The notes beneath the pieces are model-generated. The model worked only from the letters and a program-made list of their open reading frames with translations. It did no database searches and was not told the DNA's origin. 64,000 nt of DNA from Rickettsiales bacterium. GTDB lineage: Bacteria > Pseudomonadota > Alphaproteobacteria > Rickettsiales > UBA998. Below are positions 30,845-47,883 of the stretch, one piece after another. The translations under genes and the position numbers were made by a program. The stretch's first letter is position 1. Each line of letters starts with the position of its first letter. The DNA lies in assembly GCA_024304995.1 (NCBI GenBank), contig JAMWZD010000002.1, positions 647,740 to 711,739 of the forward strand, in the 5' to 3' direction.

Positions 30845-30873
30845 GAGGAACAATGTTATGGTGACCCCTACGG
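30845..30873. repeat. Distal att direct repeat (tRNA-Glu 3'-end duplicate)
   Basis: gaggaacaatgttatggtgacccctacgg here versus gaggaacagttttatggtgacccctacgg at 41782-41810. The exact 18-bp core is ttatggtgacccctacgg. Confidence 0.8.
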
Positions 30874-30997
30874 AATCAAAACTGACTTTTTATGTGTTTG
30901 AAACAAAAAGACTTTGTGTAAATCTACAAAAGAAATGCTACAGTTCCAGCTGCTCATTTTATTCAATGCCTGTGAACTGTAGCGAACGTAATCTGCT

Positions 30998-33900
30998 TTA
31001 AAACTCAAAATCACTATCTGACAATATTCCTCTGTAATCTCCATCCAATGCCAGATCAAAGTTTGAGAAATCATCTCGTAAGTAAGTTTGATCACTGTCA
31101 CTACTATAAGTGACGCGCAAAAGACCTGGCTGCGCTGTTCCTTCTGTGATGCCAGTGAATCCAAAACCTAGAATGAAGATAATGTCACTGCCAGCTTCAA
31201 AGTCAATAATGCGGTCTGGGCTGTCTTTTAATGTGTCTTGTGCGCTATTGAAAATGAAGTTATCTCTTCCTTCATCACCGCGTAACACATCCTGACCATT
31301 GCCGCCGAAAATGTGGTCGTTGCCCGAACCGCCAATGATAGTGTCATTACCTTCTTCTCCCATAAGCAGATCATTGCCGTCGTACCCACTGATATAGTCA
31401 TCACCATTCCAGCCATAAGCACTGTCATCACCTGATCCTGCTAAAATTCGGTCATTGCCATCGTCACCGCCTAATAGGTCATCTCCAGCATGTCCTTCAA
31501 GCAGGTCATTGCCTGTCCAGCCCCAGATCGTATCATTTCCAGCATTGCCATATAATGCATCATTTCCAGCATCACCATAAAGCAAATCATCGCCAGCATT
31601 GCCTTTTAATTTGTCATGACCATCACCACCATGCATTGTATCATCACCATTTGCCCCGAGCAAAGTGTCTTTTCCAGCATCACCATAGGCTATGCCTGAA
31701 TCCCATAACTGGATTTTATCGTTTGATGAGTTTGCTGGTGTTTCATCAACAGTGCTGTCCTCGCCTGAAATTGTGTCTTCGTTATCATTTTCTGCTTCGG
31801 CATTATCACCGCCAGAAACAGTGTCTTCTACGACTTCTTCTTCAATAACTTCATTTACTGTGACAGAAATAGACGCAGTGCTTTCCAGTTCACCATCTGA
31901 AATAGTATAGCTGAATGTATCAACACCGCTGAACCCTTCATTTGGCGTGTAGCTTAGTGTGTTGTCAGAATTGATAATAACAGAGCCATTTGCAGGTATG
32001 CCAACTGCAACAATATTTAGTGAATCGTTATCAACATCACTATCATTTGCAAGTGCATCAATAGTTATAGCGGTACTTTCATTTGTCTCTATTGTATCAT
32101 TACCAGCAACAGGCGCATCATTCACACCATTTATTGTAATGTTTACAGTAGCTGGTTCACTGATGGTTTCTCCATCGGTTATCGTGTATGTGAATGTATC
32201 AGTTGCTGTTTCCCCTGCTTTTAAGGCATTAAATGCGTTATTGGGATTGTAGGTGAATGTTCCATCGCCGTTATCTGTAAGTAAACCCTTTAAGTTTTCG
32301 TTATTGATGGTAGAGATTATAACTAAATTATTAACGTAAGAGTCATTTTCTAATACAGACTTTGTTATAAAAAATTTATCAGCGTCTGTTTTAAATCCTA
32401 TACCATTATCGCTGATCGGCTGTTGTATATTATCAGCTTCAGTATTAGTTCCAGAGTCGTTTGTAATGCTATCATCATCTTTGTTAGAATTATCGTTATC
32501 ATCTATGTTATTGTCTCTGACAGTAATATAAACGAAAGCTGAATCAATTAATTTTCCATCAGATACTTCATAAATGAAAAAATCTTCTCCTGCAAAATCT
32601 CTTGTGGGTATATAAGATATAGTGTTGTTAGTGTTTATTATAGCTTTACCATTACGAGGATTTGATAGGGCATTGATTTTTAGCATGTCATTATCAACAT
32701 CAGAATCATTACCAAGAATATTTAATATTATTTCAGTATTCGAAAATACTGTAATATTATCTTCTATAGCATTAGGACGATCGTTAACACCATTAATTTT
32801 AATTGTAACCGTAGCATCATTACTCGTATATGTTCCATCTGAAATCTGATAAGTAAATTGTTCTGTAACAAATTCACCTTCTTTCAAAGACTTTAAGGTT
32901 TCATCTGGTATGTAATGAAAGATCCCGCTATTGCTTGGTTCAAATAATTCTCCTATTAGACCACTTGCATTATAGCCGCTTATAAAAATTTCATCCTCAT
33001 TTGCATCGCTGTCATTATCTAGTACCGATTTCGTAAATAATATTGCATTTGCATCAACAATATAACCAGTTCCAGCATCGTCAGTTGCTATTGGAGGTAC
33101 GTTCTTTAGGTCCTCTGTTATTGCAAGAATTTCTGCAAAAGTATATTCCTCTCCATCAGCAAATTTAAATTTCTGTATAGCATAGTCAATGTCTGATCTT
33201 AACTGATCATGTATTTTTATTTTTTCGCCACTAGATAATGTTATCAATAAATCAAACCTATTTCCATCAGGTTCTATTGGATCATCAATTGCTTTAAAAG
33301 ATACATTATCTTTTATTATATTATCGGCAAACAATAAAGTTTTATCACTATCACCACCAGTATGTTTCGGATCTATAAACCCCCCATCCATTTCTTTTGC
33401 AAAATAATAAGTGTGAAAATCAAAATCACCTTTGAAAGAAAAATCTTGGTAAAAGCTTTCTGAAACTTCAGTTGATCCACTCCATCCTGCACTTTGACCG
33501 ACTAGTAATGGAGAATCCTTGATTCTTGTATGCAGACTGTAACCACTAATATCTTTAATTTCAAAATCATCTAAATAAGATATTGGAATTACAGAACCAT
33601 AACCTTGCCAAACACTATCTCCTGTAATACTAAGATTTACTCGTTCAAATTTGCCACCTAAAAAATTATTACTGTCTGGTGATTCTTCAAAGACTATAAA
33701 TAAAATTCCATTCTTAGTTGGACCAGAAGAAATTCTTCCATTAACAAGATCAATCGACTCACCATTAACTGTTAACCTTCCAGAGAGATTACCATCATAA
33801 CTACCTTGAGTAGTTCCATAAAGTAAATCATATGAATATTCCAAAGAAGCTGGAACAAAAATAGGATCATTACCATAACCAATATTTATATTTGTAGAAA

Positions 33901-35386
33901 AAATAAAATCAAATTCTTTGGATGACCCATCGTCTTCCATATAAATTCCATAATCGCCGTTGTTCCAACGTTCAAGAGTGATTTGATCATTAGATTTACT
34001 AAATACCAAATCATTTCCAGCTAGTGAAACCTCATAACTACCGATTAGATTTTCATCTTCTTTTAAAGTAATTCCTTTAAATTCTTTTCCATCTAACCAT
34101 AATACATCATCGCCATTCAATTCACTGATAGTATCGTCTCCGTGTCCAACATCAAAAATATATGTGTCATCACCTAAGCCACCATACAAAAAATCATCTC
34201 CTTTTCCGCCTATCAGAATGTCATTGTCATTACCACCAACCAGAGCGTCATTCAATTCTCCCCCTGTAAGTTCATCATTACCATCAAATCCGACGAGGTA
34301 ATTTGAAAAATCCAAATTATTTTCAACTTGTTCTTTTGGTAATATATGAGAGATGTCGAGCTTGTCAGCTAAATCACTCCCCAACACAATTAAATTATCA
34401 ACTTCTTCACCATTTATCGTTGGCAATACAGAAGCCATTGGTACATTTATTCCAAAATCTGTAACTTCTGATATTGCAAGTGTATAATTGTCGTTATTAT
34501 TTTCTAAATCATTTCCCCAAGTACCAGAATATGGAGTTAAAATTTGCTGCACTGGTAGGGTAACTTCAGTCGAACCAAAAATTTTCAGTGGTAATGCGAA
34601 CAATGTGTTGTTAGTGTTTAGAGGATTGATAACCGCTTCTTTGCCGTCTGATAAAGTTCTCAATAGCGCGTCATTTCTAAAAAATTGTGTTTCAATTTGC
34701 GCTGCTGCTAAATCCTCTTTTGATATATCAAGCACATCAATAATTTGCTGGAAGATAGTTTGAAATGGTACAAAATCATATTTTAAATCTTCGAATCCAA
34801 TATCAATGTTTATTTTGTCTGATAAAATTATATCTACATTTTCTTTAATTGCCATATCCAAAAATTGGTTGATATTTAAAATTGGAACATTTTTGCTGAT
34901 TCCATTTTCAAATATTAGTCCAGCTTTGACTGTATTTTCATTTTGTGTTGTCAAAGTTAATGTGTGTTTATCTGTTAAATACTCAAAAGTATCATCTACT
35001 ATTGGTTCGACAAAAGATGAATATGCAACAGACACTGTGCTTGCCACACCTACTGCTATTGCAACGGCAACAATTGTGCTAGCACCAATAGGTGTTAAAG
35101 CTGTTGTTAAAATAGCTGCTGCTATACCAGTTGCGATATCATCAATTATAGCTGTTCCTATTGAAATATTTCCATCACCATATAAAATATCGACAGTTTC
35201 CTCAACAGCTTGTGATATGGGGGAGCTTTTAGCCAAAAATTTAAGTGACGTAGTGCCATTCTTTTTCAACTCATCAAGCTCTAGATATTTATTTAAAGCA
35301 CCTTCTAAAACAGAAAATCCATTGCCAATTTTGCTAATTTCATCATTTGCAAGAAGTGGAGCTTTGTAAAAATGCAGAGATCCCAT
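30998..35386 (-). CDS. Giant RTX / cadherin-like repeat protein (1462 aa), putative type I secretion substrate or adhesin
   Basis: Four cadherin-like modules ('...NDSDVDND...FTYTI(S/T)DG...INGVNDAP'). An early RTX block 'GGNDNDILIGGKGDDFLYGGLGDD'. A C-terminal run of GxxGxD nonapeptides 'GNAGDDLLYGDAGNDALYGNAGNDTIWG...'. The protein ends '...LSDSDFEF'. Visibly AT-rich. Confidence 0.85.
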   Translation of the reverse strand: MGSLHFYKAPLLANDEISKIGNGFSVLEGALNKYLELDELKKNGTTSLKFLAKSSPISQAVEETVDILYGDGNISIGTAIIDDIATGIAAAILTTALTPIGASTIVAVAIAVGVASTVSVAYSSFVEPIVDDTFEYLTDKHTLTLTTQNENTVKAGLIFENGISKNVPILNINQFLDMAIKENVDIILSDKINIDIGFEDLKYDFVPFQTIFQQIIDVLDISKEDLAAAQIETQFFRNDALLRTLSDGKEAVINPLNTNNTLFALPLKIFGSTEVTLPVQQILTPYSGTWGNDLENNNDNYTLAISEVTDFGINVPMASVLPTINGEEVDNLIVLGSDLADKLDISHILPKEQVENNLDFSNYLVGFDGNDELTGGELNDALVGGNDNDILIGGKGDDFLYGGLGDDTYIFDVGHGDDTISELNGDDVLWLDGKEFKGITLKEDENLIGSYEVSLAGNDLVFSKSNDQITLERWNNGDYGIYMEDDGSSKEFDFIFSTNINIGYGNDPIFVPASLEYSYDLLYGTTQGSYDGNLSGRLTVNGESIDLVNGRISSGPTKNGILFIVFEESPDSNNFLGGKFERVNLSITGDSVWQGYGSVIPISYLDDFEIKDISGYSLHTRIKDSPLLVGQSAGWSGSTEVSESFYQDFSFKGDFDFHTYYFAKEMDGGFIDPKHTGGDSDKTLLFADNIIKDNVSFKAIDDPIEPDGNRFDLLITLSSGEKIKIHDQLRSDIDYAIQKFKFADGEEYTFAEILAITEDLKNVPPIATDDAGTGYIVDANAILFTKSVLDNDSDANEDEIFISGYNASGLIGELFEPSNSGIFHYIPDETLKSLKEGEFVTEQFTYQISDGTYTSNDATVTIKINGVNDRPNAIEDNITVFSNTEIILNILGNDSDVDNDMLKINALSNPRNGKAIINTNNTISYIPTRDFAGEDFFIYEVSDGKLIDSAFVYITVRDNNIDDNDNSNKDDDSITNDSGTNTEADNIQQPISDNGIGFKTDADKFFITKSVLENDSYVNNLVIISTINNENLKGLLTDNGDGTFTYNPNNAFNALKAGETATDTFTYTITDGETISEPATVNITINGVNDAPVAGNDTIETNESTAITIDALANDSDVDNDSLNIVAVGIPANGSVIINSDNTLSYTPNEGFSGVDTFSYTISDGELESTASISVTVNEVIEEEVVEDTVSGGDNAEAENDNEDTISGEDSTVDETPANSSNDKIQLWDSGIAYGDAGKDTLLGANGDDTMHGGDGHDKLKGNAGDDLLYGDAGNDALYGNAGNDTIWGWTGNDLLEGHAGDDLLGGDDGNDRILAGSGDDSAYGWNGDDYISGYDGNDLLMGEEGNDTIIGGSGNDHIFGGNGQDVLRGDEGRDNFIFNSAQDTLKDSPDRIIDFEAGSDIIFILGFGFTGITEGTAQPGLLRVTYSSDSDQTYLRDDFSNFDLALDGDYRGILSDSDFEF
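31850..33110 (-). repeat. Array of four cadherin-like (~100 aa) modules within the giant gene; diverged at the DNA level
   Basis: The repeated protein pattern is (P/A)xAxxD ... NDSDxxxD ... (F/Y)xYx(I/V)SDG ... (I/V)xVxxVN(D/E). Confidence 0.5.
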
Positions 35387-35618
35387 ATATCACCCAAGTT
35401 TCTTTTATTAATTTTTGTATAATTGTTTAGTCTGAAATACAATTAAAATAAATACATAATGTCCTAGTTTGATAATTTATTTTTTGCTTAAGGTTTTACT
35501 CCAGTATGAATTCTTTCTAAGAATATTTACAGACTAGCCATAGCATTGAAGAATAACTTTAGTTCGCAGCCGTAATTACAGACCTGCTGCTTTCAACGCT
35601 GCAAATTTGTTAAAATCT

Positions 35619-35879
35619 CTAGTCTTCTGCTTCTATGCCCTGCCTTACGGCAAGAATAACTTTGTCTGCATCAATTTCTAATGCGTCACATATATTGATA
35701 AATTCAATAACATCTAATCTGCGTTCTCCGCCTTCATATTTAGCAACAAATGACTGTGGTTTACTGATTCGAGTTGCCAGTTGCTGTTGTGTCAAACCCG
35801 CATTGCGCCTTGCTTGTATCAAGTGGCTTTGCAGTAACTGTGACTGTTTTGAATGTATGGTTTTCTTCAAAATACGCAA
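35619..35879 (-). CDS. XRE-family helix-turn-helix transcriptional regulator (86 aa)
   Basis: 'IQARRNAGLTQQQLATRISKPQSFVAKYEGGERRLDVIEF' is a typical Cro/C1-type HTH. Confidence 0.8.
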   Translation of the reverse strand: MRILKKTIHSKQSQLLQSHLIQARRNAGLTQQQLATRISKPQSFVAKYEGGERRLDVIEFINICDALEIDADKVILAVRQGIEAED

Positions 35880-35910
35880 CTTATGGATTGAATTTGTGCG
35901 TATTGATGGT

Positions 35911-35946
35911 TAATCCTGTAATCGGATTATCCCAAAATAGGATTAA
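35911..35946. promoter_or_regulatory. Operator-like repeats in the XRE / GIY-YIG divergent intergenic region
   Basis: taatcc-N7-ggatta palindrome (35911-35929), with further ggatt copies at 35885-35889 and 35940-35944. Confidence 0.3.
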
Positions 35947-35948
35947 AT

Positions 35949-36668
35949 ATGTTCACATCAGAAATATGCGAAGCATTGCAATATTATGTATATCGTTTGA
36001 TTGATCCGCGTAATGGTGAAACATTTTATGTTGCTAAAGGTAAAAATAACCGTGTGTTTGAACATGCAAAAGGTGAGGCGGATGCTGTTGAAGTAGCAAT
36101 AAGCCAAAAAATTGAACGCATACGTGACATACGCATTTCAGGTTTTGATGTTGGTCATGTGATTCACCGTCATGGGCTAAATAAAGATACTGCTTATGAA
36201 GTGGAGGCCGCTTTGATTGGTGTCTATCCTGCAACCACCAATATTATGTCTGGTCATTATTCTGGTGAACGTGGTGTGATGCACTCAAGACAAATCATTG
36301 AGCAATATCAGGCAGACGAAATTATATTTTATCATGACGTAATGCTTATCAATATTGGCGTGTCAGCATTGCAGCATTCAGCTATTTATGAAGCGGTACG
36401 CTATGCATGGAAAATAGACGTTACACGTGCGCGTAAAGCGCAATATATACTGGCGGTGTGTAGCGGTTTGGTTGTCGGTGTGTTCGTACCAGAAATATGG
36501 CTGGAAGCGACCACAGAACATTTTCCTGACCGCGAATCGAAACAGGGCAGGTGGGGTTTCATTGGCTGTGATGCACCAAGCGATATTACAAAAACCTATC
36601 TGAGAAAACGTGTGCCATCATCTATGCGAAAGAAAGGCTCTGCCAATCCTATTCGCTATAGTTATTAA
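35949..36668 (+). CDS. GIY-YIG nuclease-family protein (239 aa)
   Basis: N-terminus 'YYVYRLIDPRNGETFYVAKGKNNRVFEH' has the GIY...YIG spacing with downstream R and E. Confidence 0.7.
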   Translation: MFTSEICEALQYYVYRLIDPRNGETFYVAKGKNNRVFEHAKGEADAVEVAISQKIERIRDIRISGFDVGHVIHRHGLNKDTAYEVEAALIGVYPATTNIMSGHYSGERGVMHSRQIIEQYQADEIIFYHDVMLINIGVSALQHSAIYEAVRYAWKIDVTRARKAQYILAVCSGLVVGVFVPEIWLEATTEHFPDRESKQGRWGFIGCDAPSDITKTYLRKRVPSSMRKKGSANPIRYSY

Positions 36669-37135
36669 AAATCAAGATAATCCGAATCAGTCAAAATAGC
36701 TTTGCGTTGTTGCTCAATGAGTGACGCCATCGTTTTTGCTTCATTTGGTGTTAGTTGCCCTGTGCTAACAGATTGCAATAAATTATCTAATGCTGGCACT
36801 ATATCATGAATCTCGCTGATATTGTCCAAATCAAACAAAATTGGTGTGTCTTTGCGTGGCGGATAAATACGCTCCATCACCAGTTTAATTGCATTCATAT
36901 CACCAGCTTTGGCGCGTTCGACCACTTTGCGTGTAATGGTTTCAGCTTCTTCATCTATCAGTGTCATCATTGCCAGTGTTGTTTTGTTTCGACTGCCTTT
37001 CGGTCTGCCGTTTGGATTGCCTGATGTTCCTTTCTTAAATGGCTTCCCACGCTGTTTTTTCGCTGTATTAACAGTAAAACTATCATCAAAATCCATGTGT
37101 GTATCCTTGATATATGTGCTTCGGACAATGGACAA
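36665..37135 (-). CDS. DUF5681-like phage/island protein (156 aa)
   Basis: 'KGTSGNPNGRPKGSRNK' motif, recalled from DUF5681-type proteins. Confidence 0.5.
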   Translation of the reverse strand: MSIVRSTYIKDTHMDFDDSFTVNTAKKQRGKPFKKGTSGNPNGRPKGSRNKTTLAMMTLIDEEAETITRKVVERAKAGDMNAIKLVMERIYPPRKDTPILFDLDNISEIHDIVPALDNLLQSVSTGQLTPNEAKTMASLIEQQRKAILTDSDYLDF

Positions 37136-37182
37136 TTAGGACGATAAACGCTGTCCATATTGTCCTGTGTCCGTAACCATTA

Positions 37183-39402
37183 TTATATATCGTGTATTAT
37201 CGGATTTACATCGTAATTACTGGCTTTGCTCTTTGATGGTATTGTACGTATCCAGCCTGTTTCTTCAAGACACGATAATGCAGCGTCACGGCGTTTAGTA
37301 TCGCGATTCAAGACATCTTTTGAGATATTGCGACCATTAATGGCCTTCATCTTGTGTTTTCGTATATATTGAGAAACTAAATACGCATCATGTTCATGCT
37401 GTGGAACGGATGCCATCTGCAAACAATGTTCTGCCATTGGATAAAAATACTCTTCAACTATTTTTACCGCATTATTCACATATTCGGCGTTAATAACATC
37501 TGGTTCGTTTATATCTGTTTGCGACCAGTTTAGATAATGTAGCACAAGACTTAAGCGTGCTGTGATGCCTCGTAATTTACCTATATGCGATACCAATATG
37601 CCTGAATGCTTATTCTCATAAACTTGAAGTCGTGACGCAAAGTCTTCTATAATTTTGCGACCAGCAGGACATAGATAAATAATTTTAGGTTCTGGTGAAT
37701 TGCTGCTGTCAATTTCCATATCTAAATTTTGTAAACATTCATAAATGCGCTCAATAAGTTTATCATCAGGTGCTACATTTGGTTCTTTAATATGTTGAGG
37801 AGTTCCTGACACATATAGAAAGCAAGATGATAGACCATCATCAGGTTGTTGTATCAGTAATTGATTAAGTTTATCTGGCTGAATGCTTCCAATGATGGAA
37901 AGTAAAACAGATGGAACGTAAATAGTATTTTCATATTTTACACGGTCAATGGTTGTTGGTCTGCCACCAAAGCTTTCAAGATAAAATGGTCGATCATTCT
38001 TACCGCTTCGTTATAAATTAGCCAGCAAGCCAGCGAGTTCATCTCTTGAGTATATTAAACCTCTAGGATTATCCGCTAATATCAGCGCAGTTTTTTCAAC
38101 TGTACTGTCATTTACAAGTAGTCTTTTAACTTTTGGCTTAGGTAATATTTCTTGCTCATCAATTTGCCATTGCTGATTAACTGCTTTTTGCATTTCCTGC
38201 TGTTGATTATACGCTTTTAATTCAGTTTCATATTGCTTTTGATAGTCTGCTTCTATTCTATGTATAAACGGAAAGACTGCATCTAATGCAGGTGACTTAT
38301 TGCATGATGGTAAACCTACTAACATAAACCATAGAGCTGTGGGTTCTTGCCACTTATGCCATACTTCTATACGGCGTGAATTACCGATAATGCCAGCAGT
38401 GGCAGATAGTAGTGCAGCAAATATATAATCTGGTGGCGCACATTTACATAATGATGCATCTTTAATAAATTTTGCTAGTGTGTCACCTAGTAAATCATAT
38501 GGACACTTAGGTAAATTCGGTTTTTGCTTTTGAACCACAGATAAATCTGGATTATTCCAATTATCGTTATGAATGTATGGATTTTTCTTACCACCTTCAA
38601 AACCGCTATGTATGGTGCTAGTAATCTCTTTTTGTTCCAAGCCTATTTCTAGAGCTGTTTTGGTTAAAATTTCTCTTGCGTATTTTTCATCAAGACCATT
38701 AGATATATGCTGACCTAGTGCAAACGCAGATTTATTGAGTTGATGATTTCGAGTGCCCTTTGCAGCATATTGCAAGTTCAATATTTCTTTTTGAATGATA
38801 TTATCAAATTGCGCTTGAGGAAGTGCTTCAGCTAATTTTTTTTGCATGGACGCAGGTTTTTCAGAAATAATATCTAACAACCACTTTGGTGCATGAGCAA
38901 TTTCTATGTCGTTGATAGGATAAACCCAACGGTAAGATGTGCCATTCGGCTGTATAGATGGCGGTGCAACTACATATCCGCCATCACCACGAATATCAAT
39001 ATTAGGTTCACGCATTCTATCAATAACAATACCTGCTTGTGTTTTAATAATACGATTATCAGGATAACGAAAATACAAATGAATCCCGTTTCCAGTTCGT
39101 GCCGAAAGTGTTCTTGGTAGCTTATTATAACGCTGCATAAGCGCTCTAATACGTTTGTCACCATCCTCACCATCAATATCAAGTACAAAAATATCTGATA
39201 TTTTTCCTGTTACGATAGCTATATTATTTTGTTGTGAATCCCACTTAATACATCGTTCAATAGTTGCATGGTTTTCTTGATATTGTTGCCATGATATATT
39301 TGGTCTTTTGCTACCATAAGAAAGTGGGAAAACGCTAAAACCACATGATAATAGATTCTGAAAATTATTTATTTTCACCTCCAATAGCAGGAAATGCATC
39401 AA
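37183..39402 (-). pseudogene. Bifunctional PrimPol + DUF3987 (helicase-like) replication protein interrupted by a single in-frame TAA
   Basis: The ORFs 39402-38011 and 37812-37183 are in the same frame. The 198 nt between them (38010-37813) is open and encodes 'RSGKNDRPFYLESFGGRPTTIDRVKYENTIYVPSVLLSIIGSIQPDKLNQLL...'. The only stop is TAA at 38013-38011. Confidence 0.7.
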
Positions 39403-39565
39403 TAAATTCTGTTACAGATTCAGCAGTGATTAGCGTTTTTGCACCAAACTTTTTGGCAACCAATTTGCCGTCATTAATTGCTTTATAAATGCTGGTGCGT
39501 CCAAGCGATATGCGCTCGCTAACTTCTTTTATAGTCAAAAGATTTTTATTCATCTCATTCTCCAT
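39365..39565 (-). CDS. AlpA/excisionase-family DNA-binding protein (66 aa)
   Basis: 'LLTIKEVSERISLGRTSIYKAINDGKL' is an AlpA/MerR-like HTH. Confidence 0.75.
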   Translation of the reverse strand: MENEMNKNLLTIKEVSERISLGRTSIYKAINDGKLVAKKFGAKTLITAESVTEFIDAFPAIGGENK

Positions 39566-39740
39566 TATGATAATTTATGAACACTTGCGTGATCCTGAGA
39601 ATGAGTTATCTGCGTATTTTCTGTCACATAAAAGCGGAGTAATTTAGTGACAGAATTTTTCTATGTGCTCAGCTAATATGGAATGGGTTTAATCAGTATT
39701 GTTTGAATTATATTTTAATTGGAACTTTTCCCAAAGATCG

Positions 39741-40217
39741 TCATGTTTTTTCCTTTGTAATACCATTGTAACAATACTGGCTTTGAAAAATTCGATACAT
39801 TTTTTGTCTCTTTTGGTATGATTCACGATAAATTTTTCTAACCGTATTTTCTGGCTTTGTATAAGAACCATCAGCTTTTGGTTTTGGCTGTAAATTATGA
39901 TTTTTTACTACCCATTCTGTAGCTTCTTTAGCGGTAGTTTTTTTATCTAAAATTTCACCATCACTGTCAATATTTGAAAACATTTTGATGCATTCAAAAT
40001 CATTGCCTATTCTGAATATTTGCTCATCAGAAAATTCACGAGGACGACCTTTTGGCTTATGTGTTAAACCTATCATTCTATGAATCAATTCTTTGTAACC
40101 TCTCGCATTTGTAATATTTAGTTCAAACCGTTTTTGACTATATTCATCACATAATACATTCAACCGCTCCTGCGCTTCTTTCATTTCTTGCTCTGTCAAA
40201 TCTTCAATTTCACCCAT
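39741..40217 (-). CDS. Hypothetical island protein (158 aa)
   Basis: ORF only. Its start overlaps the reconstructed integrase 3' end. Confidence 0.4.
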   Translation of the reverse strand: MGEIEDLTEQEMKEAQERLNVLCDEYSQKRFELNITNARGYKELIHRMIGLTHKPKGRPREFSDEQIFRIGNDFECIKMFSNIDSDGEILDKKTTAKEATEWVVKNHNLQPKPKADGSYTKPENTVRKIYRESYQKRQKMYRIFQSQYCYNGITKEKT

Positions 40218-41413
40218 CAATTTTCATCCCTAATTTTTGCATATGGTCAGCCCACCACTGCATTATCTCTGTGCGCTCTGGTAGGTATGCACGATTATAT
40301 ACGGCGCGTACCTGATCGCGCTCTGTGTGTGCTAACTGCCGCTCTATGGCATCGCTGTTAAAGCCATGTTCGTTTAATATGGTGTCTGGCTGTGGTGCGG
40401 AAGCCGTGACCAGTGGTGATGCCTTTATAGCCCATTAAGTCAATCGCACGAAGAAACGTATTCTCGCTAATGCATTTACGTGGATTTTGAAAACTTGGTA
40501 ACACGTAGCCACTATAGCTGTTTCTTGTCACCTCGTGAATCTTTTTGAACAATGCAATGCTTTGCGCTGATAATGGCACAAGCAGTTCTTTTCGCATCTT
40601 CATCCGTTCAGCAGGTATGCGCCATAGTTTTTGTTTAAAGTCTATCTCAGACCATTGTGCCTGACGTAATTCAGATGTGCGAACAAAGGTTAGAATCAAT
40701 AACTGAAATCCCCACTTGGTAATTGGATTGCCGTTATAGGTGCTGTCATAGCAATTTAGTTTACGCAAGAAATCTGGTAATTGCTGTTCTTCAAGATAGG
40801 CGCGATGTGTGGTGGCAGACGGTTTCAATGCACCTTGCAAATCAGTCGTGATATTGCGTTCTGCTTTACCGCATGCAATCGCATAACGATATATTTGCGC
40901 TGTAGTTTGCAACATACGCTTTGCCATTTCATGCCTGCCTTGCTGTTCTATCGGTTTCAGCGTATGCAGCAATTCAGGCGGCGTGATGTTTACAATAGGC
41001 TTGTTGCAAAGAATAGGGAAGAGGTGCATTTCCAGCCGTTTCATAATGTTATCTGCATGTCGTGGCTGCCATGTATGACGTTTTTGTTCGTGCCATTCAC
41101 GCGCTATCGCTTCAAACGTATTCACATGCTGCATTTCAAAATCCAGCTTTTCCTGCCTTTTGGCTTGCACTGGATCAATATTATGCATCACCAGCTTTTT
41201 CTTCTCCAGCTTCAATTCACGCGCTTCTTTTAACGATACTAATGGATATTCACCAAGTGACACCTGTTTGCGTTTATTATTCAGACTATACGCCAGATAC
41301 CAGCGTTTACTGCCAGATGGATTGACCGTTAGCGATAAATTATCACCATCATTCAGGCGATACATTTTATCTTTCGGTTGTGCATTTTTAATCTGTATGT
41401 TTGTCAGCTTCAT
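40210..41413 (-). pseudogene. int: P4-type tyrosine integrase with a +1 frameshift before the catalytic C-terminus
   Basis: N-terminal DUF4102-like 'KLTNIQIKNAQPKDKMYRLNDGDNLSLTV'. The ORF stops after 'GHGFRTTARHHIKRTWL'. The next frame continues 'EHGFNSDAIERQLAHTERDQVRAVYNRAYLPERTEIMQWWADHM', which holds the His and Tyr of the active site. Removing one C near 40384 restores 'TARTILNEHGF'. Confidence 0.8.
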
Positions 41414-41781
41414 TTGTTACCTCTTTACTGTTTTGCATGTGGACATCCACGAATAGCCATGAATGACTATGAATAAATAACAAGAAAAAACAGCATGTTA
41501 CACAGTTTTTCTTAGCAAAAATTAGCGAAATAGTAAAGCGGTAAAGTGATCGTCCATATTGTCCATCGTCCACGGTAGGTATGGATATAAAAAACAGGAA
41601 CACCAACTAAGCCAGCAAACCAAGCAAAACCTAGTGTAGCAAAACCCATGACTTGCTACAGCTTGCTGTAATTTTTGCTACCAAAAAACGTGGCTGTAGG
41701 CAAATAAACGCGAACAGAAACGAATAGAAAAGCAGTTTAAGTTATTGACGAATAAACACAAAACGAACAGATACGAATGTT

Positions 41782-41810
41782 GAGGAACAGTTTTATGGTG
41801 ACCCCTACGG
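41782..41810. repeat. Proximal att direct repeat: 15 nt of the tRNA-Glu 3' end plus 14 nt downstream
   Basis: See the partner at 30845-30873. Confidence 0.8.
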
Positions 41811-41870
41811 GATTCGAACCCGTGTTGCCGCCGTGAAAGGGCGATGTCCTAACCACTAGACGAAGGGGCC
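41796..41870 (-). tRNA. tRNA-Glu (anticodon UUC)
   Basis: The reverse complement GGCCCCTTCGTCTAGTGGTTAGGACATCGCCCTTTCACGGCGGCAACACGGGTTCGAATCCCGTAGGGGTCACCA folds as a cloverleaf, has a CTTTCAC anticodon loop and encoded CCA, and is close to E. coli tRNA-Glu. Confidence 0.9.
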
Positions 41871-41965: not shown

Positions 41966-43927
41966 TTAGCGTGATGGACCATTAGGTTTGCGTGTTTCAT
42001 TTATTTCGGCAATATCATCTGTGCGTTTTTCTGATGCCATTTCAGTCAGTACGCCTTTGCGTGTATTGCTTTGCGCTTTTTGTTGAACAAAGCTATTAAC
42101 ATTGAAGGGTTTAAGCGCATCTCCCGTGCCGTCAAACTGAGCTTCGGTAATGGCATCTAATTTCATGTCTGCCACCAAACTTGCCATATTGGTTTTTTGC
42201 TGCCCTAGCTTTCCAGCTGTGCCAACGATATTGTTTTTGCCTTTTCCGCGAAGTCCTTTTGCGCTGACAATATTGTTTTTGCCTTTGCCAGTTGCTTCGT
42301 CCATTTGGTTCTGCTTTTCTTTCTGGCGAAGCAGCATTTGTGCGCGCACTGCTTGCATACCGTCAATCTTTGCGTCTTTCTTGGCAAGGTTTTTGTTTTC
42401 GTCAATATCTTCGGCGCGTTTATCTTCCTTCGCGCTGTTTGCAGCTGGCTGAAATTCCCGCAAGCCTAATGCCAGCTCATTCGCTTTGCCAAGCTGGTTT
42501 TGTGTTTGAGTAATGTCCTGTACATGCTCCACCACCGCGTCCAACCCGCGTTCCACACGTTCCAGCAATGCGCCGACCGTGACATCACCAGAATGTTTGC
42601 ATGAGTCTGGCATATTATTTGCTGCTGCAACTAATTTGTCGCATTCTTTCATAGCAAGTTTTGCCTGATCAACATCTTGTGCTGCCTCATAAGCAATCGC
42701 GCTATTTTGCATTTGCGCAGCTTGGTGATTTAACTCATGATATTGCAATATTTCTAATGCATGTAATGCCTCTCGCACTAATTCATTCTGCTCAATATTT
42801 TCATCAAGCTGCACCGCCACATCCAGATGATGACGGAAAATGCTGCTGACATCAGACATTTTGTTGAAGAGTTCCTGAACGATCGGCTGGTCAAAATTGT
42901 CCAGCAACTGCTCTACTGAGAATGCAGAGAAATGCACTTTGAGTTTGTCCAGAATATTGCGTGCTTCGGTGATGGCTTCTTCCTGAACGTCTTTGTTCAA
43001 ATCCTCCACCGTGTTAAGCTGCATCTGAATGTCGCCTAATTCCTGTGCGCCTTCTTCCACCTGTCCTAATTCTGCTAGGGCTGCAACGTCCTGCTGCGCC
43101 ATGAGGTTGGCATACACTGCCTGCCGCGCGGCTTCTTCTGCGAGATATTCCTGTTCGGCGTAATTAGTATCTTCATATGTATAATCAATAAATTCAGGAT
43201 CACCTGCATCTGAAATGCGGTTTACCTTGCTGAAGGGCGTGTCGCTCAAAGGGGGCAAATCCCAGTTGTGGGAGTCTTTTCCTGAAAGCAGGTTGATGAA
43301 GCTATGCGCAAGACCAGTGCGTTTGTAACTATCGCTTTTTGCTTTCAGGCGTGAATATATTTCTGCGCCACCGACGGCTTCTTCATTCGCAAGGCTAAGT
43401 GAGATGCTGGGTTCCAGTGGGTTGTGCAGCACATTTTTCCCGCGTTTGAGCATCAAACCAATATCTTTTGCCATCTGATCCACAAATTTTACTGCTTTGT
43501 CCTGTGGGTCACGGTTTTCCTGCCCCGTGGGGAAATAATTATTGAACAGATAATTGCGCATCACGGCGAGGTTCATGCGCAAATCATCATATTTCGGATC
43601 ATCACTCATCAGTTTTTTGGCGATATCCTTTCCAGCGCTCACCGCAATCTGCCCATCAAAAAATTCATAGGCATATGGGTTAAACTGCAACCCCTCTCTT
43701 TGAATAAATGCTTTATTATATTCCCAGCTATCCCCCTCTGATTTGATAAAAGGCCCTAGCACAGGATGGTCATATCGAGGGTCATCCCGATGAAGTTCTA
43801 CGGCTTTTGGTTCAGGGTCGTCAGGGCCCCCAGGGTCAAGGCTGCTTATGTCAAACGGTTCCAGCGGGTCAGGAGCGGGGCCTGGTTCACCGTAAAAAGA
43901 TGCTATGTTGTCGTCTTCATCAGCCAT
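41966..43927 (-). CDS. Large orphan protein (653 aa), mostly helical/acidic, no signal peptide
   Basis: Long ORF, probably co-transcribed with the 97-aa gene upstream. It contains the short internal repeat 'GKGKNNIV(S/G)'. Confidence 0.6.
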   Translation of the reverse strand: MADEDDNIASFYGEPGPAPDPLEPFDISSLDPGGPDDPEPKAVELHRDDPRYDHPVLGPFIKSEGDSWEYNKAFIQREGLQFNPYAYEFFDGQIAVSAGKDIAKKLMSDDPKYDDLRMNLAVMRNYLFNNYFPTGQENRDPQDKAVKFVDQMAKDIGLMLKRGKNVLHNPLEPSISLSLANEEAVGGAEIYSRLKAKSDSYKRTGLAHSFINLLSGKDSHNWDLPPLSDTPFSKVNRISDAGDPEFIDYTYEDTNYAEQEYLAEEAARQAVYANLMAQQDVAALAELGQVEEGAQELGDIQMQLNTVEDLNKDVQEEAITEARNILDKLKVHFSAFSVEQLLDNFDQPIVQELFNKMSDVSSIFRHHLDVAVQLDENIEQNELVREALHALEILQYHELNHQAAQMQNSAIAYEAAQDVDQAKLAMKECDKLVAAANNMPDSCKHSGDVTVGALLERVERGLDAVVEHVQDITQTQNQLGKANELALGLREFQPAANSAKEDKRAEDIDENKNLAKKDAKIDGMQAVRAQMLLRQKEKQNQMDEATGKGKNNIVSAKGLRGKGKNNIVGTAGKLGQQKTNMASLVADMKLDAITEAQFDGTGDALKPFNVNSFVQQKAQSNTRKGVLTEMASEKRTDDIAEINETRKPNGPSR

Positions 43928-43942
43928 ATAAATTTATCAGTA

Positions 43943-44236
43943 TCAGGATGGCTTCGCGCCACCTTCCTTGTCTTTCTGGGCGGCAGCATTGCCAAGTGCG
44001 TAAACACACAGATCTTCAAAAGAGACATTATTTTCCTGCGAGATCTTAAAGAGTTTTTCAAAACTATCCATCACATCCTGCGGAATAGTGCCACCACGTT
44101 CACTGGAAAGCCAGTTGGACTGGTTGAGCAACGGATGTTTTTTGGGGTGCGGTTCGCCAACATACACATGAAACGGATGCTTCTTTCCGCCAAAATCACA
44201 AGGTATTGTAAAACGCTTCATTGTCACTTTCTCCAA
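43943..44236 (-). CDS. Small conserved-looking hypothetical protein (97 aa)
   Basis: The ORF begins 'MKRFTIPCDFGGKKHPFHVYVGEPHPKKHPL'. I have a vague recollection of similar small proteins in intracellular bacteria, but cannot name the family reliably. Confidence 0.55.
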   Translation of the reverse strand: MEKVTMKRFTIPCDFGGKKHPFHVYVGEPHPKKHPLLNQSNWLSSERGGTIPQDVMDSFEKLFKISQENNVSFEDLCVYALGNAAAQKDKEGGAKPS

Positions 44237-44384
44237 TAATCATAGTATAACTGTTTAATATTACCATTATATGACAGTCATTTCTATCATATAAACTTTA
44301 ACTGACGATAAACCTCTATATTGTAAAGAATTTGTCATAAAAATTTCGTGTTATGCAACATTGCAATGTGTTAATCTGAAACAA

Positions 44385-46304
44385 ATGACCGCTATTCTTC
44401 CTAAACGACATTCCGTACCTGAACATAATGACCAACTTCAGCTGATGGTGGAGCGTGCGCAGATTGCGCAGGATGAGCTGGTTAAATTTTCAGCAGATGC
44501 CGTGCATCGCGTTATGGTAGAAAAAGCCCTTATTTATGCGTTTGAAGGCAAGGAAGCTGCAGAATTGGCATATGAAGAGCCGAAAGAAACAATCGAATCT
44601 GTGCTTCGTTCCATACGCGGATTGCTTGGAAAAGACTTTTCACTGGAAGAAGAAGATCTGCAGCATTTATATTCGGATCTTAATAACGGAGAAATAACAA
44701 AAGAAGGCATCTATAAATTTACAGATGCATTGTTTGAAACAGGGGCTGTTACTGCGTTATCATCGCATGTGCCTTCCTCTATGATTGAAGCACATAATGA
44801 AGCACAGAACAAAATGACATTGCATCTGGACTGGCATCAGAACCAGTTGAGCAATTTGATTGAAAATGGAAAAACGCTTCATGACGGCACATATCTTATT
44901 TTAAGTGATGAACAGAAACTGATTGTGGCGCGGCATAATCAGCTGGTGACAGACTGGCGTGATGGTATGCTGGAAAATTTCCCGCAATCTGTTGAATTTA
45001 CAGAGATTGCTAATAAAGCAGAAATTTCTCACCCCCATATTGAAGGTGTAACACAGCACCCATTAATGAATGCAATTCAGGGGATGCATGAAGCGGTGAA
45101 GCGGCTTCAATTTGCACGTATTAAAGATGATCTGGAGAATCAAAAATTTATTGAAGAACAGCCAGAAGCACATATTATCAGCCTGTTTGAAAAAGGCATC
45201 AAATCGCCTGCGTCCATTCAGGAAAAAATTGAAACAGTGCATGATGGTGAATATTTTGACGATAATAACAGACCTAAAATCAATGATGCCGCACGTGACA
45301 AGATTATCGTAGGTGACGTAGAAACACTGGAACGGCTGACCCATCATTCTGCCAATATTATTGCAGAGCGTGATGATATGGAATTGAAAAAAGCAAAATT
45401 GCGCATGACGGGGCAGGGCGAATGGCACGCGGGGATGATTGTTGAATTTACCCTGAAAGACAAAGAAGGAAAGGAATTTCAGTTCCCTACTGAGTTTTTC
45501 TTTTCTGATGTAAAACAGCATGAAATTGAGCAGATTTCGCATAGTATTTATAATTGCATAAAGCTGGTGAAGGATAATGGCGGAAAATCTTCTCGCAATA
45601 ATATTGGTGACAGGGATTTAAATGCTATCACCGTTGAGGAAGCAAAAGAGTTTGTGCAGCAATATAATCATATTGCTGAATGGATTAATGAACATCATAG
45701 CACAAAGATGGACTATTTCCTCAAAAGCAATCATTTTGAATGGTATCAGAACAAATTTTCAAAAGACGAAATTATTGATAATACCAGACATGTTCTTGAA
45801 GAAACTCAAACGAAAGATAGAAATTATACAGACGTGATTCTCGCGTTGGATCATTTGCAGACCAGTTCCACCATCATGAACCCTCTTAAAAAAGAGCAGA
45901 CAGATATTATGTTTGATATAACAAAAGAATCAAATGGTATGATTGGGGCGGAAGCAAGCGCACTTATTGCACTAAAGTCGGAAGAATTGCGCTCTATGCA
46001 TCGTTTCATTAAAGCATGTGCTGCAAAGTCACATATGAATGAACCATATGACCGTTATAACGGAGCAGACCCATCCATGTCTGCTTTATATTCTGTGCTG
46101 ACGGATAATAATAACCCGTTGAAAGAAAAAGAAATGATTCAGCGTCATAAGCAGGTGGCAGATATGCCTGAAAGTATCTTTATTCCAAAACTGGGTGTTG
46201 ATTTTGAAATGCAGCATCTCAAAGAAGCGCATCAGTTTGTTGACAAATTTGACGAACTGACCAAACCTTTATTAGCTGAAAAATTTGCAGGGGTGGCGCG
46301 TTGA
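44385..46304 (+). CDS. Orphan 639-aa protein with a central region resembling a divergent RelA/SpoT-type nucleotidyltransferase fold (tentative)
   Basis: Ordered motifs: 'KGIKSPASIQEKI' (45195-45230), 'INDAARDKIIV' (45279-45311), 'GEWHAGMIV' (45417-45443), 'TEFFFSD-x9-SHSIY' (45489-45551). The ATG at 44385 is preferred over TTG at 44361. Confidence 0.55.
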   Translation: MTAILPKRHSVPEHNDQLQLMVERAQIAQDELVKFSADAVHRVMVEKALIYAFEGKEAAELAYEEPKETIESVLRSIRGLLGKDFSLEEEDLQHLYSDLNNGEITKEGIYKFTDALFETGAVTALSSHVPSSMIEAHNEAQNKMTLHLDWHQNQLSNLIENGKTLHDGTYLILSDEQKLIVARHNQLVTDWRDGMLENFPQSVEFTEIANKAEISHPHIEGVTQHPLMNAIQGMHEAVKRLQFARIKDDLENQKFIEEQPEAHIISLFEKGIKSPASIQEKIETVHDGEYFDDNNRPKINDAARDKIIVGDVETLERLTHHSANIIAERDDMELKKAKLRMTGQGEWHAGMIVEFTLKDKEGKEFQFPTEFFFSDVKQHEIEQISHSIYNCIKLVKDNGGKSSRNNIGDRDLNAITVEEAKEFVQQYNHIAEWINEHHSTKMDYFLKSNHFEWYQNKFSKDEIIDNTRHVLEETQTKDRNYTDVILALDHLQTSSTIMNPLKKEQTDIMFDITKESNGMIGAEASALIALKSEELRSMHRFIKACAAKSHMNEPYDRYNGADPSMSALYSVLTDNNNPLKEKEMIQRHKQVADMPESIFIPKLGVDFEMQHLKEAHQFVDKFDELTKPLLAEKFAGVAR

Positions 46305-46510
46305 TGCCAGATTATGCTTATAAAGAATATGAAGAGCAGATTTTTCGTATATTGTTAGGAGCGTCTGTGATTGAGCATCAGGTGGAAATATACCGCAAAG
46401 GCAAAGGGTTTGTACCATTCGAAAACGCAACATTGGTGTTGATGCGTGGTTATGATGTTTCGGAAAAGCAGGCAAAACAGCGCATCGCCAATCAGATTAT
46501 TCGGCGTTAG
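46304..46510 (+). CDS. Small ORF (68 aa) translationally coupled to the upstream orphan
   Basis: TGATG stop/start junction at 46302-46306; no motif recognised. Confidence 0.45.
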   Translation: MPDYAYKEYEEQIFRILLGASVIEHQVEIYRKGKGFVPFENATLVLMRGYDVSEKQAKQRIANQIIRR

Positions 46511-47883
46511 CCTTTCTGCAATTCCAGTTGCTGCTCTAATTTTCCTTCATGCTGATGGTCATGAGTTGTGAATGTTGGAGTTTGCTGCGTGTTTCTGTTA
46601 AATATCAGATCAATATTTCTACCTGAAAACGCATTATCCAGCATTGGAATTGCCGTTTCGCTGGGTTGCTGAGCGTTCAGCAGGGTGCATTCATCCTTGC
46701 ATATATGCTCGGCTAATTCTTTTTTGTCGGCATCAGGCAGATTTGCATAATCCATCTGCATATTCAGTAGGGACTGCTGGAATGACACTCCACTATCAAA
46801 TAAAGCAAGGGTCTGAATTAATGCATCAGTGCTATATTGAACGTCAGAGAAAGACTGATTGATCTGCGCTGTTTCCAGAAAGCCTTCTTGTTTATAATAA
46901 TCCAGCTTATCCAGCATATCTCCTACATTGCAGTCTTCTCCTGCAATCTGATGCATGACGTGCTTGCACGGTTCTGGCAATGCCGCAAATGCTTTTTGCG
47001 CCATCTTGCCCAGTGCGATTTTTTCTTCCTCTACGTAACGTGCTGCCGTATCAATAAATTCCTGAGCAGTGATGGAGCCATTGCTAAGAGATGATATAGT
47101 AGCTGGCAGCCATGCATGTTGCACATTGTGGTTGTCACGCAGATCAAGCAGATCACTCGTGACAGACTGTAATGCTGCATTGCCTGAATTTTCTGAAATA
47201 ACCTGCAAGGTATTGAGAGAATCAGAAATCAGTGATTCAGTGCGGTCAAACACACCACGCATGGCGCTATTATTCTGAATCATATATTGCAGCGTAAACA
47301 ACCCGTTGAGCATATCGTCATTTTGCACCAGTCGGGTAGTATTATCTGCAACGGCATTTTGCGCGGAAACATCCAGATGTTCAAATTCTATGATATTGCG
47401 CTGCTGCAGAGCAGTGGAAATATGAGATGCTTCAACAGGTTGTGATAGTTCAGTTGCAGCGATTTCTTCTGCCACTTCGCCTGCCTGCGTTTCTTTTTCA
47501 TCTGTTTCATCCAGCGCTTCATTAATAGCAGCATTGCGCGGAATGCTCATGGCTTTGGTGAGCGCTTTGCCATCTCCAGAAGATAACGCACCGCTAATGC
47601 CTGTTTTCAGTGCAGATAAGGTGGCAACATTTGCCAACATTTCGCCGCGCTGGTCTGCTGGAGCCTGACTGATTTCTTCCAGCAAATCCTGTATCTGCCC
47701 GTCAATCACTGCCAGTGCCTGTTCCGCTTCTGCGCGTTCACCTGCATCAATAAAGGCGGCTTCATCACGCGGTGCTTCCTGCGGCAATTCTGGGGAGGAT
47801 TGTGTCAGCAAGGCTTCTGCCTGCTGCGCTGCTTCAGGGGTCGGTGTAGTCATATTCGTTACTGCGGCAATATGTGACGGCAT
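46507..47883 (-). CDS. Large orphan protein (458 aa), acidic and helical
   Basis: Long ORF. Its stop overlaps the stop of the convergent 68-aa ORF by 4 nt. Confidence 0.55.
   Translation of the reverse strand: MPSHIAAVTNMTTPTPEAAQQAEALLTQSSPELPQEAPRDEAAFIDAGERAEAEQALAVIDGQIQDLLEEISQAPADQRGEMLANVATLSALKTGISGALSSGDGKALTKAMSIPRNAAINEALDETDEKETQAGEVAEEIAATELSQPVEASHISTALQQRNIIEFEHLDVSAQNAVADNTTRLVQNDDMLNGLFTLQYMIQNNSAMRGVFDRTESLISDSLNTLQVISENSGNAALQSVTSDLLDLRDNHNVQHAWLPATISSLSNGSITAQEFIDTAARYVEEEKIALGKMAQKAFAALPEPCKHVMHQIAGEDCNVGDMLDKLDYYKQEGFLETAQINQSFSDVQYSTDALIQTLALFDSGVSFQQSLLNMQMDYANLPDADKKELAEHICKDECTLLNAQQPSETAIPMLDNAFSGRNIDLIFNRNTQQTPTFTTHDHQHEGKLEQQLELQKG

Follow-up and report, generated by a model that had tools for sequence, protein, structure and literature searches.

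A clade-wide DUF2610 gene pair with recurrent type IV secretion neighbours, in a mosaic of five genes beside a tRNA-Glu island of a Rickettsiales bacterium

This report concerns five adjacent genes in a 64,000-nucleotide stretch of DNA from a Rickettsiales bacterium (GenBank assembly GCA_024304995.1, contig JAMWZD010000002.1, positions 647,740 to 711,739 of the forward strand), a stretch called here the window. The genes lie between tRNA-Glu and serB and are named for the lengths of their products: p653, p97, p639, p68, and p458. A preliminary description had taken them for orphans, possibly secreted host-interaction effectors or parts of one uncharacterised system, and accessory because they adjoin a tRNA. 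The block is in fact a mosaic: it consists of three transcription units that are independent of one another and differ greatly in evolutionary age. Unit A, which encodes p97, a protein of the Pfam family DUF2610, and behind it p653, is an ancient operon found throughout a clade of uncultured Rickettsiales-like Alphaproteobacteria. In several independent gene orders, DUF2610 recurrently neighbours genes of type IV secretion systems (T4SS) and ATPases of the type IV coupling protein (T4CP) type. Unit B comprises p639 and p68, and unit C is p458.

The small protein of unit A matches DUF2610 (PF11020) over profile positions 1-80 of 81, with an E value of 3.2e-38 and a score of 129.9 bits against a cutoff of 21, and the identical gene in Logan assemblies carries the same precomputed family. 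It has the residues that are near-invariant in the family (C12, Y24, G26, P28, H33, P34, Q38, W41, GG47-48, P51, F72, and E73). Its true start is most likely not that of the longest open reading frame (ORF) but the ATG at 44221, giving 92 amino acids (43943-44221), because a GGAGA Shine-Dalgarno sequence precedes this ATG and the N-termini of homologues agree with it. A scan of 185,579 species-representative genomes found 63 loci encoding the protein at 71-93% identity, nearly all of them in uncultured metagenome-assembled genomes (MAGs) labelled Rickettsiales or Alphaproteobacteria. AlphaFold2 models the protein as a beta-hairpin followed by three helices, with a mean predicted local distance difference test (pLDDT) of 87.7, and this model has no fold match in PDB or BFVD. 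DUF2610 is a known but uncharacterised family; the family of p653 has no name.

The second gene goes with the first almost wherever the first is found in the clade. Of the loci with room for it, 54-55 of the 58 from genomes and 41 of the 49 from metagenomes have an ORF of the p653 family directly after DUF2610. The gaps between the two are mostly short (median about 15 nt), and the gap of 15 nt reported for the window is correct. Homologues of p653 were found in about 100 loci, by tblastn and then by a hidden Markov model (HMM) built from an alignment of 45 family sequences, the window protein among them. Their identity to the window protein is 18-35%, too divergent for a word-indexed search, which is why such a search of 5.8 billion clusters returned only 5 members. 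The HMM gives p653 of the window 429 bits (E 1e-128), a value that is not independent, since p653 is in the alignment; the family motifs LRxNLAVxRNxL, WxLPPLxxTPF, and AIxxARxILxKLK are all present in it. Among the 150 best DUF2610 representatives, none has p653 fused to DUF2610. The pair is found in virtually all relatives, in a position that is only partly conserved, and for these two genes this overturns the earlier label of accessory by the standard set in the preliminary description itself, conservation across related genomes with free-living ones among them. The label of orphan likewise fails for p97 and p653, which have homologues, and stands for p639, p68, and p458, with one or two relatives each.

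The p653 family is organised around two conserved helical domains. In the window protein an acidic, Pro-rich, disordered segment (residues 1-50) precedes the first domain (about 51-225); a linker leads to the second (about 301-475), after which come a variable low-complexity region and a basic C-terminal tail rich in Pro, Gly, and Arg. Across the 45-sequence alignment, the blocks at about 51-225 and 301-475 and the extreme C-terminus are kept, and the N-terminal 50 residues and residues 476-640 vary. An AlphaFold2 model made from a 5-sequence alignment has a pLDDT of 54, the two helical domains reaching 70-87 and the remainder being disordered. Foldseek matches to that model were rejected as generic helical bundles. 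Nothing credible was found in the PDB by searching with the single protein or with the 45-sequence profile, and no Pfam, NCBIfam, PHROG, or PADLOC entry matched above threshold. The tail of the family often reads PPxPPxRGGGRGF. The last 12 residues contain at least two K/R and no D/E in 78% of the family, compared with 32% of control ORFs, and an ending of G-R-(G, S, or E)-hydrophobic is found in 20 of 45 members, compared with 21 of 583 controls. Arg-rich C-termini are a known transport signal of substrates of the Agrobacterium VirB/D4 system (PMC10025392).

In the nearest relative, represented by an ENA contig (L067), the whole block is present. Nonsynonymous divergence (dN) from that contig is 0.019 for p97, 0.147 for p653, 0.192 for p639, 0.262 for p68, and 0.312 for p458, with rpoH (0.029), serB (0.139), and rluD (0.195) for comparison. 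Because dN is 0.02-0.31 while divergence at synonymous sites (dS) is saturated, all five are real genes under purifying selection.

What surrounds unit A in its relatives gives the first indication of function. The commonest order begins with gatB-gatA and, further on, ruvX-dprA-topA, and continues on one strand with an NDUFS4-like gene, DUF2610, and p653. Facing p653 on the other strand are a small ORF, three copies of virB6, virB4, and virB3, an islet of an rvh-type T4SS. Unit A stands tail-to-tail with the virB3-virB4-virB6 operon in 32 of 73 loci overall: the convergent islet follows p653 in 26 of 42 genome loci, at distances of 0.13-1.06 kb, and among 31 metagenome loci it lies within 3 kb of p653 in 6. 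On the other side, 31 of 49 loci have the NDUFS4-like gene ahead of the pair, and one subclade has a cheA-W-Y-B-R operon directly upstream.

The rvh islets (virB3-virB4-virB6xN and virB8-virD4) are recognisable in these neighbours by the tandem VirB6/TrbL paralogues that follow virB3-virB4, and tandem VirB6 paralogues are a hallmark of rvh systems in Rickettsia and environmental Rickettsiales (PMC2653234, PMC9352585). Unlike the known components, DUF2610 and p653 are not recognised parts of the system and go unmentioned in both of those papers, and the window itself contains no rvh gene. The MAGs of the relatives include bins with UBA61xx names, resembling that of the Athabascaceae MAG UBA6187 of Schön et al. 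(PMC9352585). Environmental Rickettsiales are described in the same work as free-living or facultative, possessing an rvh T4SS, flagella, and chemotaxis, with no verified effectors assigned.

Two features of these neighbourhoods deserve mention in their own right. At five loci (L009, L026, L028, L068, and L070; for example L068 3376-9636) the chemotaxis operon is complete, with an HPT gene, cheA, cheW, cheY, cheB, and cheR; it runs in the direction of DUF2610 and stops about 60 nt short of it, and there the pair may be co-transcribed with the chemotaxis genes. Between the last virB6 and p653, at L068 12085-12234 and in about 35 loci, there is a conserved ORF of about 49 amino acids (42-81% identity, no Pfam match), which could be an unannotated small component of the T4SS.

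Outside the clade, DUF2610 is found in quite different company. An exhaustive HMMER search of 1.84 billion cluster representatives gave 724 matches, 471 of them below 1e-10, with identities of 45-65% even where the match comes from another phylum. Some are parts of larger proteins, with architectures nSTAND1-TPR-DUF2610, Ser/Thr kinase-TPR-DUF2610(-TPR), TIR-TPR-DUF2610, and DUF2610-TPR. Many others have DUF2610 at the N-terminus followed by a long acidic low-complexity tail with an ending such as DDDLLxF or DIDDFLNS, and some of these carry the label 'Rickettsiales bacterium'. In the literature searched, DUF2610 is mentioned solely for two orthocaspases of cyanobacteria, where it is an accessory domain (PMC8283722); it gives the family no function and describes neither the pair with p653 nor a recurrent T4CP neighbourhood.

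Even so, genes of type IV secretion recur. In AT-rich MAGs labelled Rickettsiales, dnaE is divergent from a tail-bearing DUF2610 gene that is followed, all in one direction, by mreB, mreC, tsaB, and virB8-virB9-virB10-virB11-virD4. Two such loci (L075 10001-19369 and L076 10001-19200), with DUF2610 upstream of mreB, contain no homologue of p653; the tail of their DUF2610 protein is a PQ/acidic repeat of about 150 amino acids ending in D-x-D-I-D-D-F-L-(N/D)-S. In L154 and L152, virB4/virB6 are 6-7 kb away, and in L043 virB8/virB9 lie 8 kb upstream. In contigs of high guanine-plus-cytosine (GC) content (0.53-0.70) from unrelated bacteria, stand-alone DUF2610 genes, single or in tandems of two or three, lie directly against genes for soluble ATPases, in places with an overlap of 4 nt. 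The ATPases match T4SS-DNA_transf, TraG-D_C, and TrwB_AAD_bind (L062, L049, L115, L138, and L140/141), contain no transmembrane segments, and have P-loops that read 'APPNSGKAS' or are degenerate. Four configurations can thus be distinguished: the convergent virB6-virB4-virB3 operon, the mreB-virB8-virD4 order, the high-GC ATPases, and the virB8/virB9 genes of L043. Genes of the T4CP family are rare in any genome, and I infer for that reason that direct adjacency of DUF2610 to a T4CP-type ATPase at five distinct loci out of about 15 without p653 is far beyond chance. A connection to secretion, which the preliminary description did not foresee, appears to run through DUF2610 and the T4CP-type ATPases.

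The high-GC loci also adjoin genes for giant STAND, NACHT, HEAT, or FGE-sulfatase proteins, and in L143 the neighbour of DUF2610 is a GGDEF-NB-ARC-TPR protein. Tandem DUF2610, a soluble T4CP-like ATPase, and a giant protein together look like an undescribed conflict-system module. A survey of conflict systems in multicellular prokaryotes includes FtsK-like, probably inactive ATPases as effectors and mentions neither DUF2610 nor T4CPs (Kaur et al. 2020, PMC7159879).

I propose, tentatively, that DUF2610 docks onto coupling ATPases of the VirD4/TraG family and presents p653 to them as partner or substrate. By this account the small, extremely constrained DUF2610 protein would be the docking module. 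The protein p653, mostly helical with disordered ends and a basic Pro/Gly/Arg tail, would be made together with it and brought by it to the coupling ATPase of the rvh T4SS, whether to be recruited there as a partner or to be translocated as a substrate, much as in systems where the gene of a small chaperone or adaptor precedes the gene of a large substrate. That p653 may be a substrate is suggested by the basic C-terminal tail of its family, which is compatible with the Arg-rich signals of VirB/D4 systems.

Among the nearest analogues is virE1-virE2 of Agrobacterium, the gene of a small chaperone or adaptor followed by that of a large T4SS substrate. In unit A too a small gene comes immediately before its large partner, which encodes a soluble acidic protein of about 650 amino acids, and T4SS or T4CP genes are near, although in the main clade that adjacency is no stronger than backbone synteny. 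The likeness to substrates of VirB/D4 systems may extend to the basic, Arg-containing extreme C-terminus of the p653 family, and rvh genes are close by in many relatives. The differences are plain as well. For neither protein of unit A did Pfam, PDB sequences, or Foldseek (E<=0.001) give a match to VirE1, VirE2, or another known chaperone, adaptor, substrate, or effector; conservation of the DUF2610 protein goes well beyond what is usual in chaperones of secretion systems; and unit A is convergent to the T4SS operon rather than part of it.

Several facts weigh against the docking proposal. The T4SS side of unit A is no better preserved than the other side: in a synteny profile the virB3-B4-B6 flank is found at about 44-62% and the housekeeping flank dprA-topA-NDUFS4 at about 55-63%, so that T4SS adjacency in the main clade could be a matter of backbone synteny alone. 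Adjacency there was consequently given up as decisive evidence. The pair and the T4SS operon are convergent, hence not co-transcribed. The window lacks any T4SS gene, as it lacks the che and NDUFS4-like genes. Its p653 has a weakly basic tail (...ETRKPNGPSR), with a net charge of 0 over the last 30 residues, and the structural model of the protein is of low confidence. DUF2610 keeps 45-60% identity even across phyla and in fusions with STAND/TPR, kinase, and TIR proteins, and conservation of this degree speaks for a universal ligand rather than a partner peculiar to one lineage. Finally, the soluble T4CP-like ATPases, because they stand beside giant STAND/NACHT proteins, are likely parts of conflict systems, not secretion machines.

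The chief alternative, possible though somewhat doubtful, is that unit A encodes a core cytoplasmic complex with no connection to secretion, in which DUF2610 would bind a universal ligand and p653 would be a scaffold with disordered arms, serving for example the cell envelope, cell shape, polarity, or the handling of nucleic acids. The T4SS genes would be near it merely by inheritance of the chromosomal backbone. Much is consistent with this: the retention of the pair in essentially all relatives, a DUF2610 gene that evolves as slowly as rpoH, the constraint on DUF2610 across phyla, and housekeeping neighbours (gatB, gatA, ruvX, dprA, topA, and the NDUFS4-like gene) as conserved as the T4SS flank. 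In other lineages DUF2610 lies directly upstream of mreB-mreC or directly downstream of cheR. Tails of the RGG type, moreover, are also found in RNA-binding proteins. What a secretion-independent complex leaves unexplained is why DUF2610 should repeatedly share operons with T4CP-family ATPases in unrelated high-GC bacteria, and why T4SS genes should lie within 10 kb of it in three gene orders among Rickettsiales-like lineages. Two observations speak against pure inertia of the backbone. L056 retains the T4SS side although its upstream 10 kb is unrelated to that of other loci, and between L003 and L068 the block from DUF2610-p653 to virB6..virB3 has been inverted as a unit. I place docking to a T4CP somewhat above the core complex.

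One may also ask whether unit A serves in conflict or defence, as a small module akin to the STAND/TPR, kinase, TIR, and caspase proteins with DUF2610 that are known from cyanobacteria and other bacteria of multicellular habit. DUF2610 is indeed fused to nSTAND1-TPR, Ser/Thr kinase-TPR, and TIR-TPR proteins and to orthocaspases (PMC8283722), and it sits beside giants of the NACHT, NB-ARC, and HEAT kinds. The resemblance to the STAND/TPR conflict systems of Kaur et al. (2020; PMC7159879) is that DUF2610 also occurs within proteins of that kind and next to soluble ATPases, some with degenerate P-loops, that belong to the T4CP branch of the FtsK-HerA superfamily. In contrast, the operon in the window has none of their enzymatic parts, neither an NTPase nor an effector domain, and has no PADLOC match. 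It is inherited vertically as a core pair in a housekeeping backbone across the clade, and is neither patchy nor island-borne, which is atypical of defence genes. A defence role for unit A is thus very unlikely.

Compared with Pfam DUF2610 as a whole, p97 is a full-length match with the near-invariant residues in place, and differs in being a stand-alone protein paired with a gene of the p653 family; elsewhere the domain is built into STAND/TPR, kinase, TIR, or caspase proteins, is followed by a long acidic tail, or adjoins T4CP-like ATPases. The docking proposal also has a broader form. DUF2610 would be an unrecognised docking domain for T4CPs, the pair a conserved adaptor-plus-substrate (or accessory) pair of the rvh system in early-branching environmental Rickettsiales, and in other phyla conflict systems of the STAND type would have recruited the same module along with soluble T4CP-like ATPases. 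Taken in its entirety, this broader form seems rather unlikely.

The features of the window, and the DUF2610 loci outside the clade that lie beside T4CP-like ATPases, are collected in Table 1.

Table 1. Coordinates, strands, and descriptions of features in and around the five-gene block, with DUF2610/ATPase loci of other contigs
Feature	Position	Strand	Description
Cadherin/Big_9 adhesin-like protein	30998-35386		1462 aa; island cargo
Integrase	40358-41413		3' side of tRNA-Glu
tRNA-Glu(UUC)	41796-41870	-	ARAGORN and Rfam; boundary of block
p653	41966-43927	-	653-aa ORF; unit A, gene 2
20-nt direct repeat in p653	42228-42247 and 42270-42289		Copies 42 nt apart; GKGKNNIV encoded twice
p97	43943-44236	-	97-aa longest ORF, TTG start; unit A, gene 1; DUF2610 protein
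Divergent intergenic region, units A/B	44222-44384		Promoter-like hexamers on both strands; inverted ATGACA / TGTCAT pair
p639	44361 or 44385-46304	+	647 or 639 aa, acidic, His-rich; unit B, gene 1
p68	46301 or 46304-46510	+	69 or 68 aa, basic; unit B, gene 2
p458	46507-47883	-	458 aa, very acidic; unit C, own transcript
DUF2610 + T4CP-like ATPase loci (other contigs)	L062 9542-11571; L049 9238-13615; L115 5678-11566; L140 6937-9849

Much of the preliminary description holds for the plain facts of the region. Calls of ORFs and tRNAs bear out the five ORFs and their position between tRNA-Glu and serB. In none of the five proteins does hydropathy over 19 residues exceed 1.15, in keeping with the reported absence of transmembrane segments, and scans with Pfam, NCBIfam, and hydropathy gave no signal peptide or enzyme motif. 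The three large proteins are acidic, as claimed, with isoelectric points (pI) of 4.75, 5.33, and 4.33. The direct repeat in p653 is real (two exact matches, with 0 expected by chance), if 2 nt off the positions quoted for it. It is only partly kept in P0002, a homologue of 77% identity, and is therefore taken to be a recent local duplication in a low-complexity region. What did not survive is an RSH-like patch: neither the five proteins nor their homologues have a RelA/SpoT or HD match in Pfam at E<=1. Rfam finds no non-coding RNA in the block other than tRNA-Glu. The five genes are present also in two Logan assemblies of the same organism.

The division into three transcription units, also put forward in the preliminary description, fits the orientations of the genes, the overlap of stop and start codons between p639 and p68, and the promoter-like sites before each unit, bearing in mind that the scan for such sites gave a total not above chance. 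Between DUF2610 and p639, at 44260-44345, two elements stand in inverted orientation, TATATGACA ... TGTCATAAA, a pair that L067 shares. The intergenic region from 44222 to 44384 is largely kept there but not in L066, a locus to which the p639 cassette has moved. A hexamer similar to this pair, ATGACA, serves as the -35-like element of the best promoter-like site before p458, which matches at 11 of 12 positions (47915-47888).

The tRNA next to the block is indeed the site of an integrated element, though not of these genes. A direct repeat of 32 nt (30845-30876 and 41782-41813, 91% identity), whose right copy includes the 3' end of tRNA-Glu, bounds an island of about 10.9 kb (30845-41813) on the 3' side of the tRNA. 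Besides the integrase and the adhesin-like protein, the island encodes HTH_17, primase-polymerase/DUF3987, DUF5681, and GIY-YIG nuclease proteins. Its GC content is 0.32-0.37; that of the five-gene block is 0.38-0.48, resembling the flanking core genes. It is this island, to the left, that is attached at the 3' end of tRNA-Glu. The five genes lie on the 5' side of the tRNA, in a block that begins at 41966, and so are not cargo of the island. To call them accessory because of the tRNA is then misleading: they are outside the island bounded by its attachment sites, and they adjoin a tRNA only here and in L067.

In L067 the order is integrase, tRNA-Glu, p652, DUF2610, p645, p67, p459, serB, A24 peptidase, rluD, and rpoH. 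At L067 316-1357 the integrase beside tRNA-Glu matches in three separate tblastn pieces of 82-97% identity, and the gene called there is only 250 amino acids long, as though the same island were present in a decaying copy.

If the five genes had been acquired at the tRNA-Glu hotspot as one accessory island or system of secreted host-interaction effectors, one could understand their contiguity and tight packing in both the window and L067, the narrow distribution of three of them, and the integrase-bearing island at the same tRNA; their lack of signal peptides, transmembrane segments, and enzyme motifs would also be in keeping. Yet the block lies outside the island and differs from it in GC content in the way just described, unit A is clade-wide, and the large proteins have no homology to one another: in profile-profile comparison of p653, p639, and p458, hhalign probabilities are below 1%. 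The next relative contradicts a single acquisition directly. In this JGI relative (sample 3300083026) p642 and p69, the counterparts of unit B, lie in L066 with an RTX protein on one side and an RND efflux operon on the other, while DUF2610 and p650 are on another contig, L069, beside efp. The same observations, that the units differ in distribution, that they occupy separate places in L066 and L069, and that the large proteins are not homologous, are the grounds for treating the block as three independent units and for setting aside the suggestion that it is one uncharacterised system. A common origin as an island of effectors is the least likely of the explanations considered here.

Units B and C have few relatives. 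In the 5.8 billion clusters p639 has only two, of 73% and 68% identity, and p458 has one, of 59%; no homologue of p458 was found in the JGI relative. The small protein p68 (pI about 9) accompanies p639 in L066 and L067 at 51-62% identity, and the stop codon of p639 overlaps the start codon of p68 by 1 nt (TGATG), an arrangement that couples their translation. The stop codons of p68 and the convergent p458 overlap as well. The divergence of p639 is similar to that of rluD, whereas p68 and p458 diverge faster than the neighbouring housekeeping genes, at about twice the rate of serB, p458 being the fastest-evolving gene of the block. None of the three has a match above threshold in Pfam, NCBIfam, PHROG, or PADLOC, and neither p639 nor p458 has a sequence match in the PDB. 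Weak matches (DUF2981, DUF7202, nSTAND5, Terpene_syn, and HTH_43, at E 0.003 or weaker) were dismissed as noise, not being reproduced in homologues; the sub-threshold match to DUF2981, for instance, is to p458 and is absent from its homologue. These genes fit the description of lineage-specific accessory genes, either young or fast-evolving, and their only tie to unit A is that they lie next to it in two genomes, with no functional connection apparent.

Might units B and C encode effectors? On such a view p639-p68 and p458 would be lineage-specific secreted effectors or toxin-type cargo of a T4SS or a type I secretion system (T1SS), with p68 as a chaperone or immunity partner. The genes are restricted to one or two close relatives, the proteins are soluble and acidic, and p458 and p68 evolve rapidly. 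The coupled genes p639-p68 form a mobile cassette that in L066 stands beside an RTX protein (HemolysinCabind), and the tail of p639, TKPLL...R, is conserved, its terminal Arg being invariant. However, searches of Pfam, NCBIfam, PADLOC, and PHROGs gave these proteins no toxin, immunity, RTX, or effector domain, and none of the five proteins has a Pfam match to HemolysinCabind, the repeat of RTX/T1SS substrates. The C-terminus of p458 is not basic, p639 evolves at the rate of ordinary enzymes, and the window holds no secretion gene nearby. An effector role for these genes is accordingly improbable, and the narrower thought that p639 and the small basic p68 are a pair of cargo and partner may be entertained only weakly. 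At L066 7797-12135 the p642-p69 cassette is divergent from its neighbour, a HemolysinCabind protein of 691 amino acids, and lies upstream of an RND operon that includes an OEP gene.

Should the link between unit A and the T4SS prove false, the analysis would still remove two genes from the list of orphan effectors, place the end of the island before the block, and isolate three lineage-specific orphans. The pair is present in essentially every member of the clade, and one of its proteins has a predicted fold with no solved relative. Environmental Rickettsiales (Mitibacteraceae and Athabascaceae-like MAGs) possess an rvh T4SS without a verified effector, so the ancestral role of that system is open (PMC9352585). 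The pair is a candidate for the recruitment of substrates by it, and provides a first functional lead for DUF2610. If the broader form of the docking proposal is true, the rvh T4SS of environmental Rickettsiales would have in p653 its first candidate cargo found throughout a clade.

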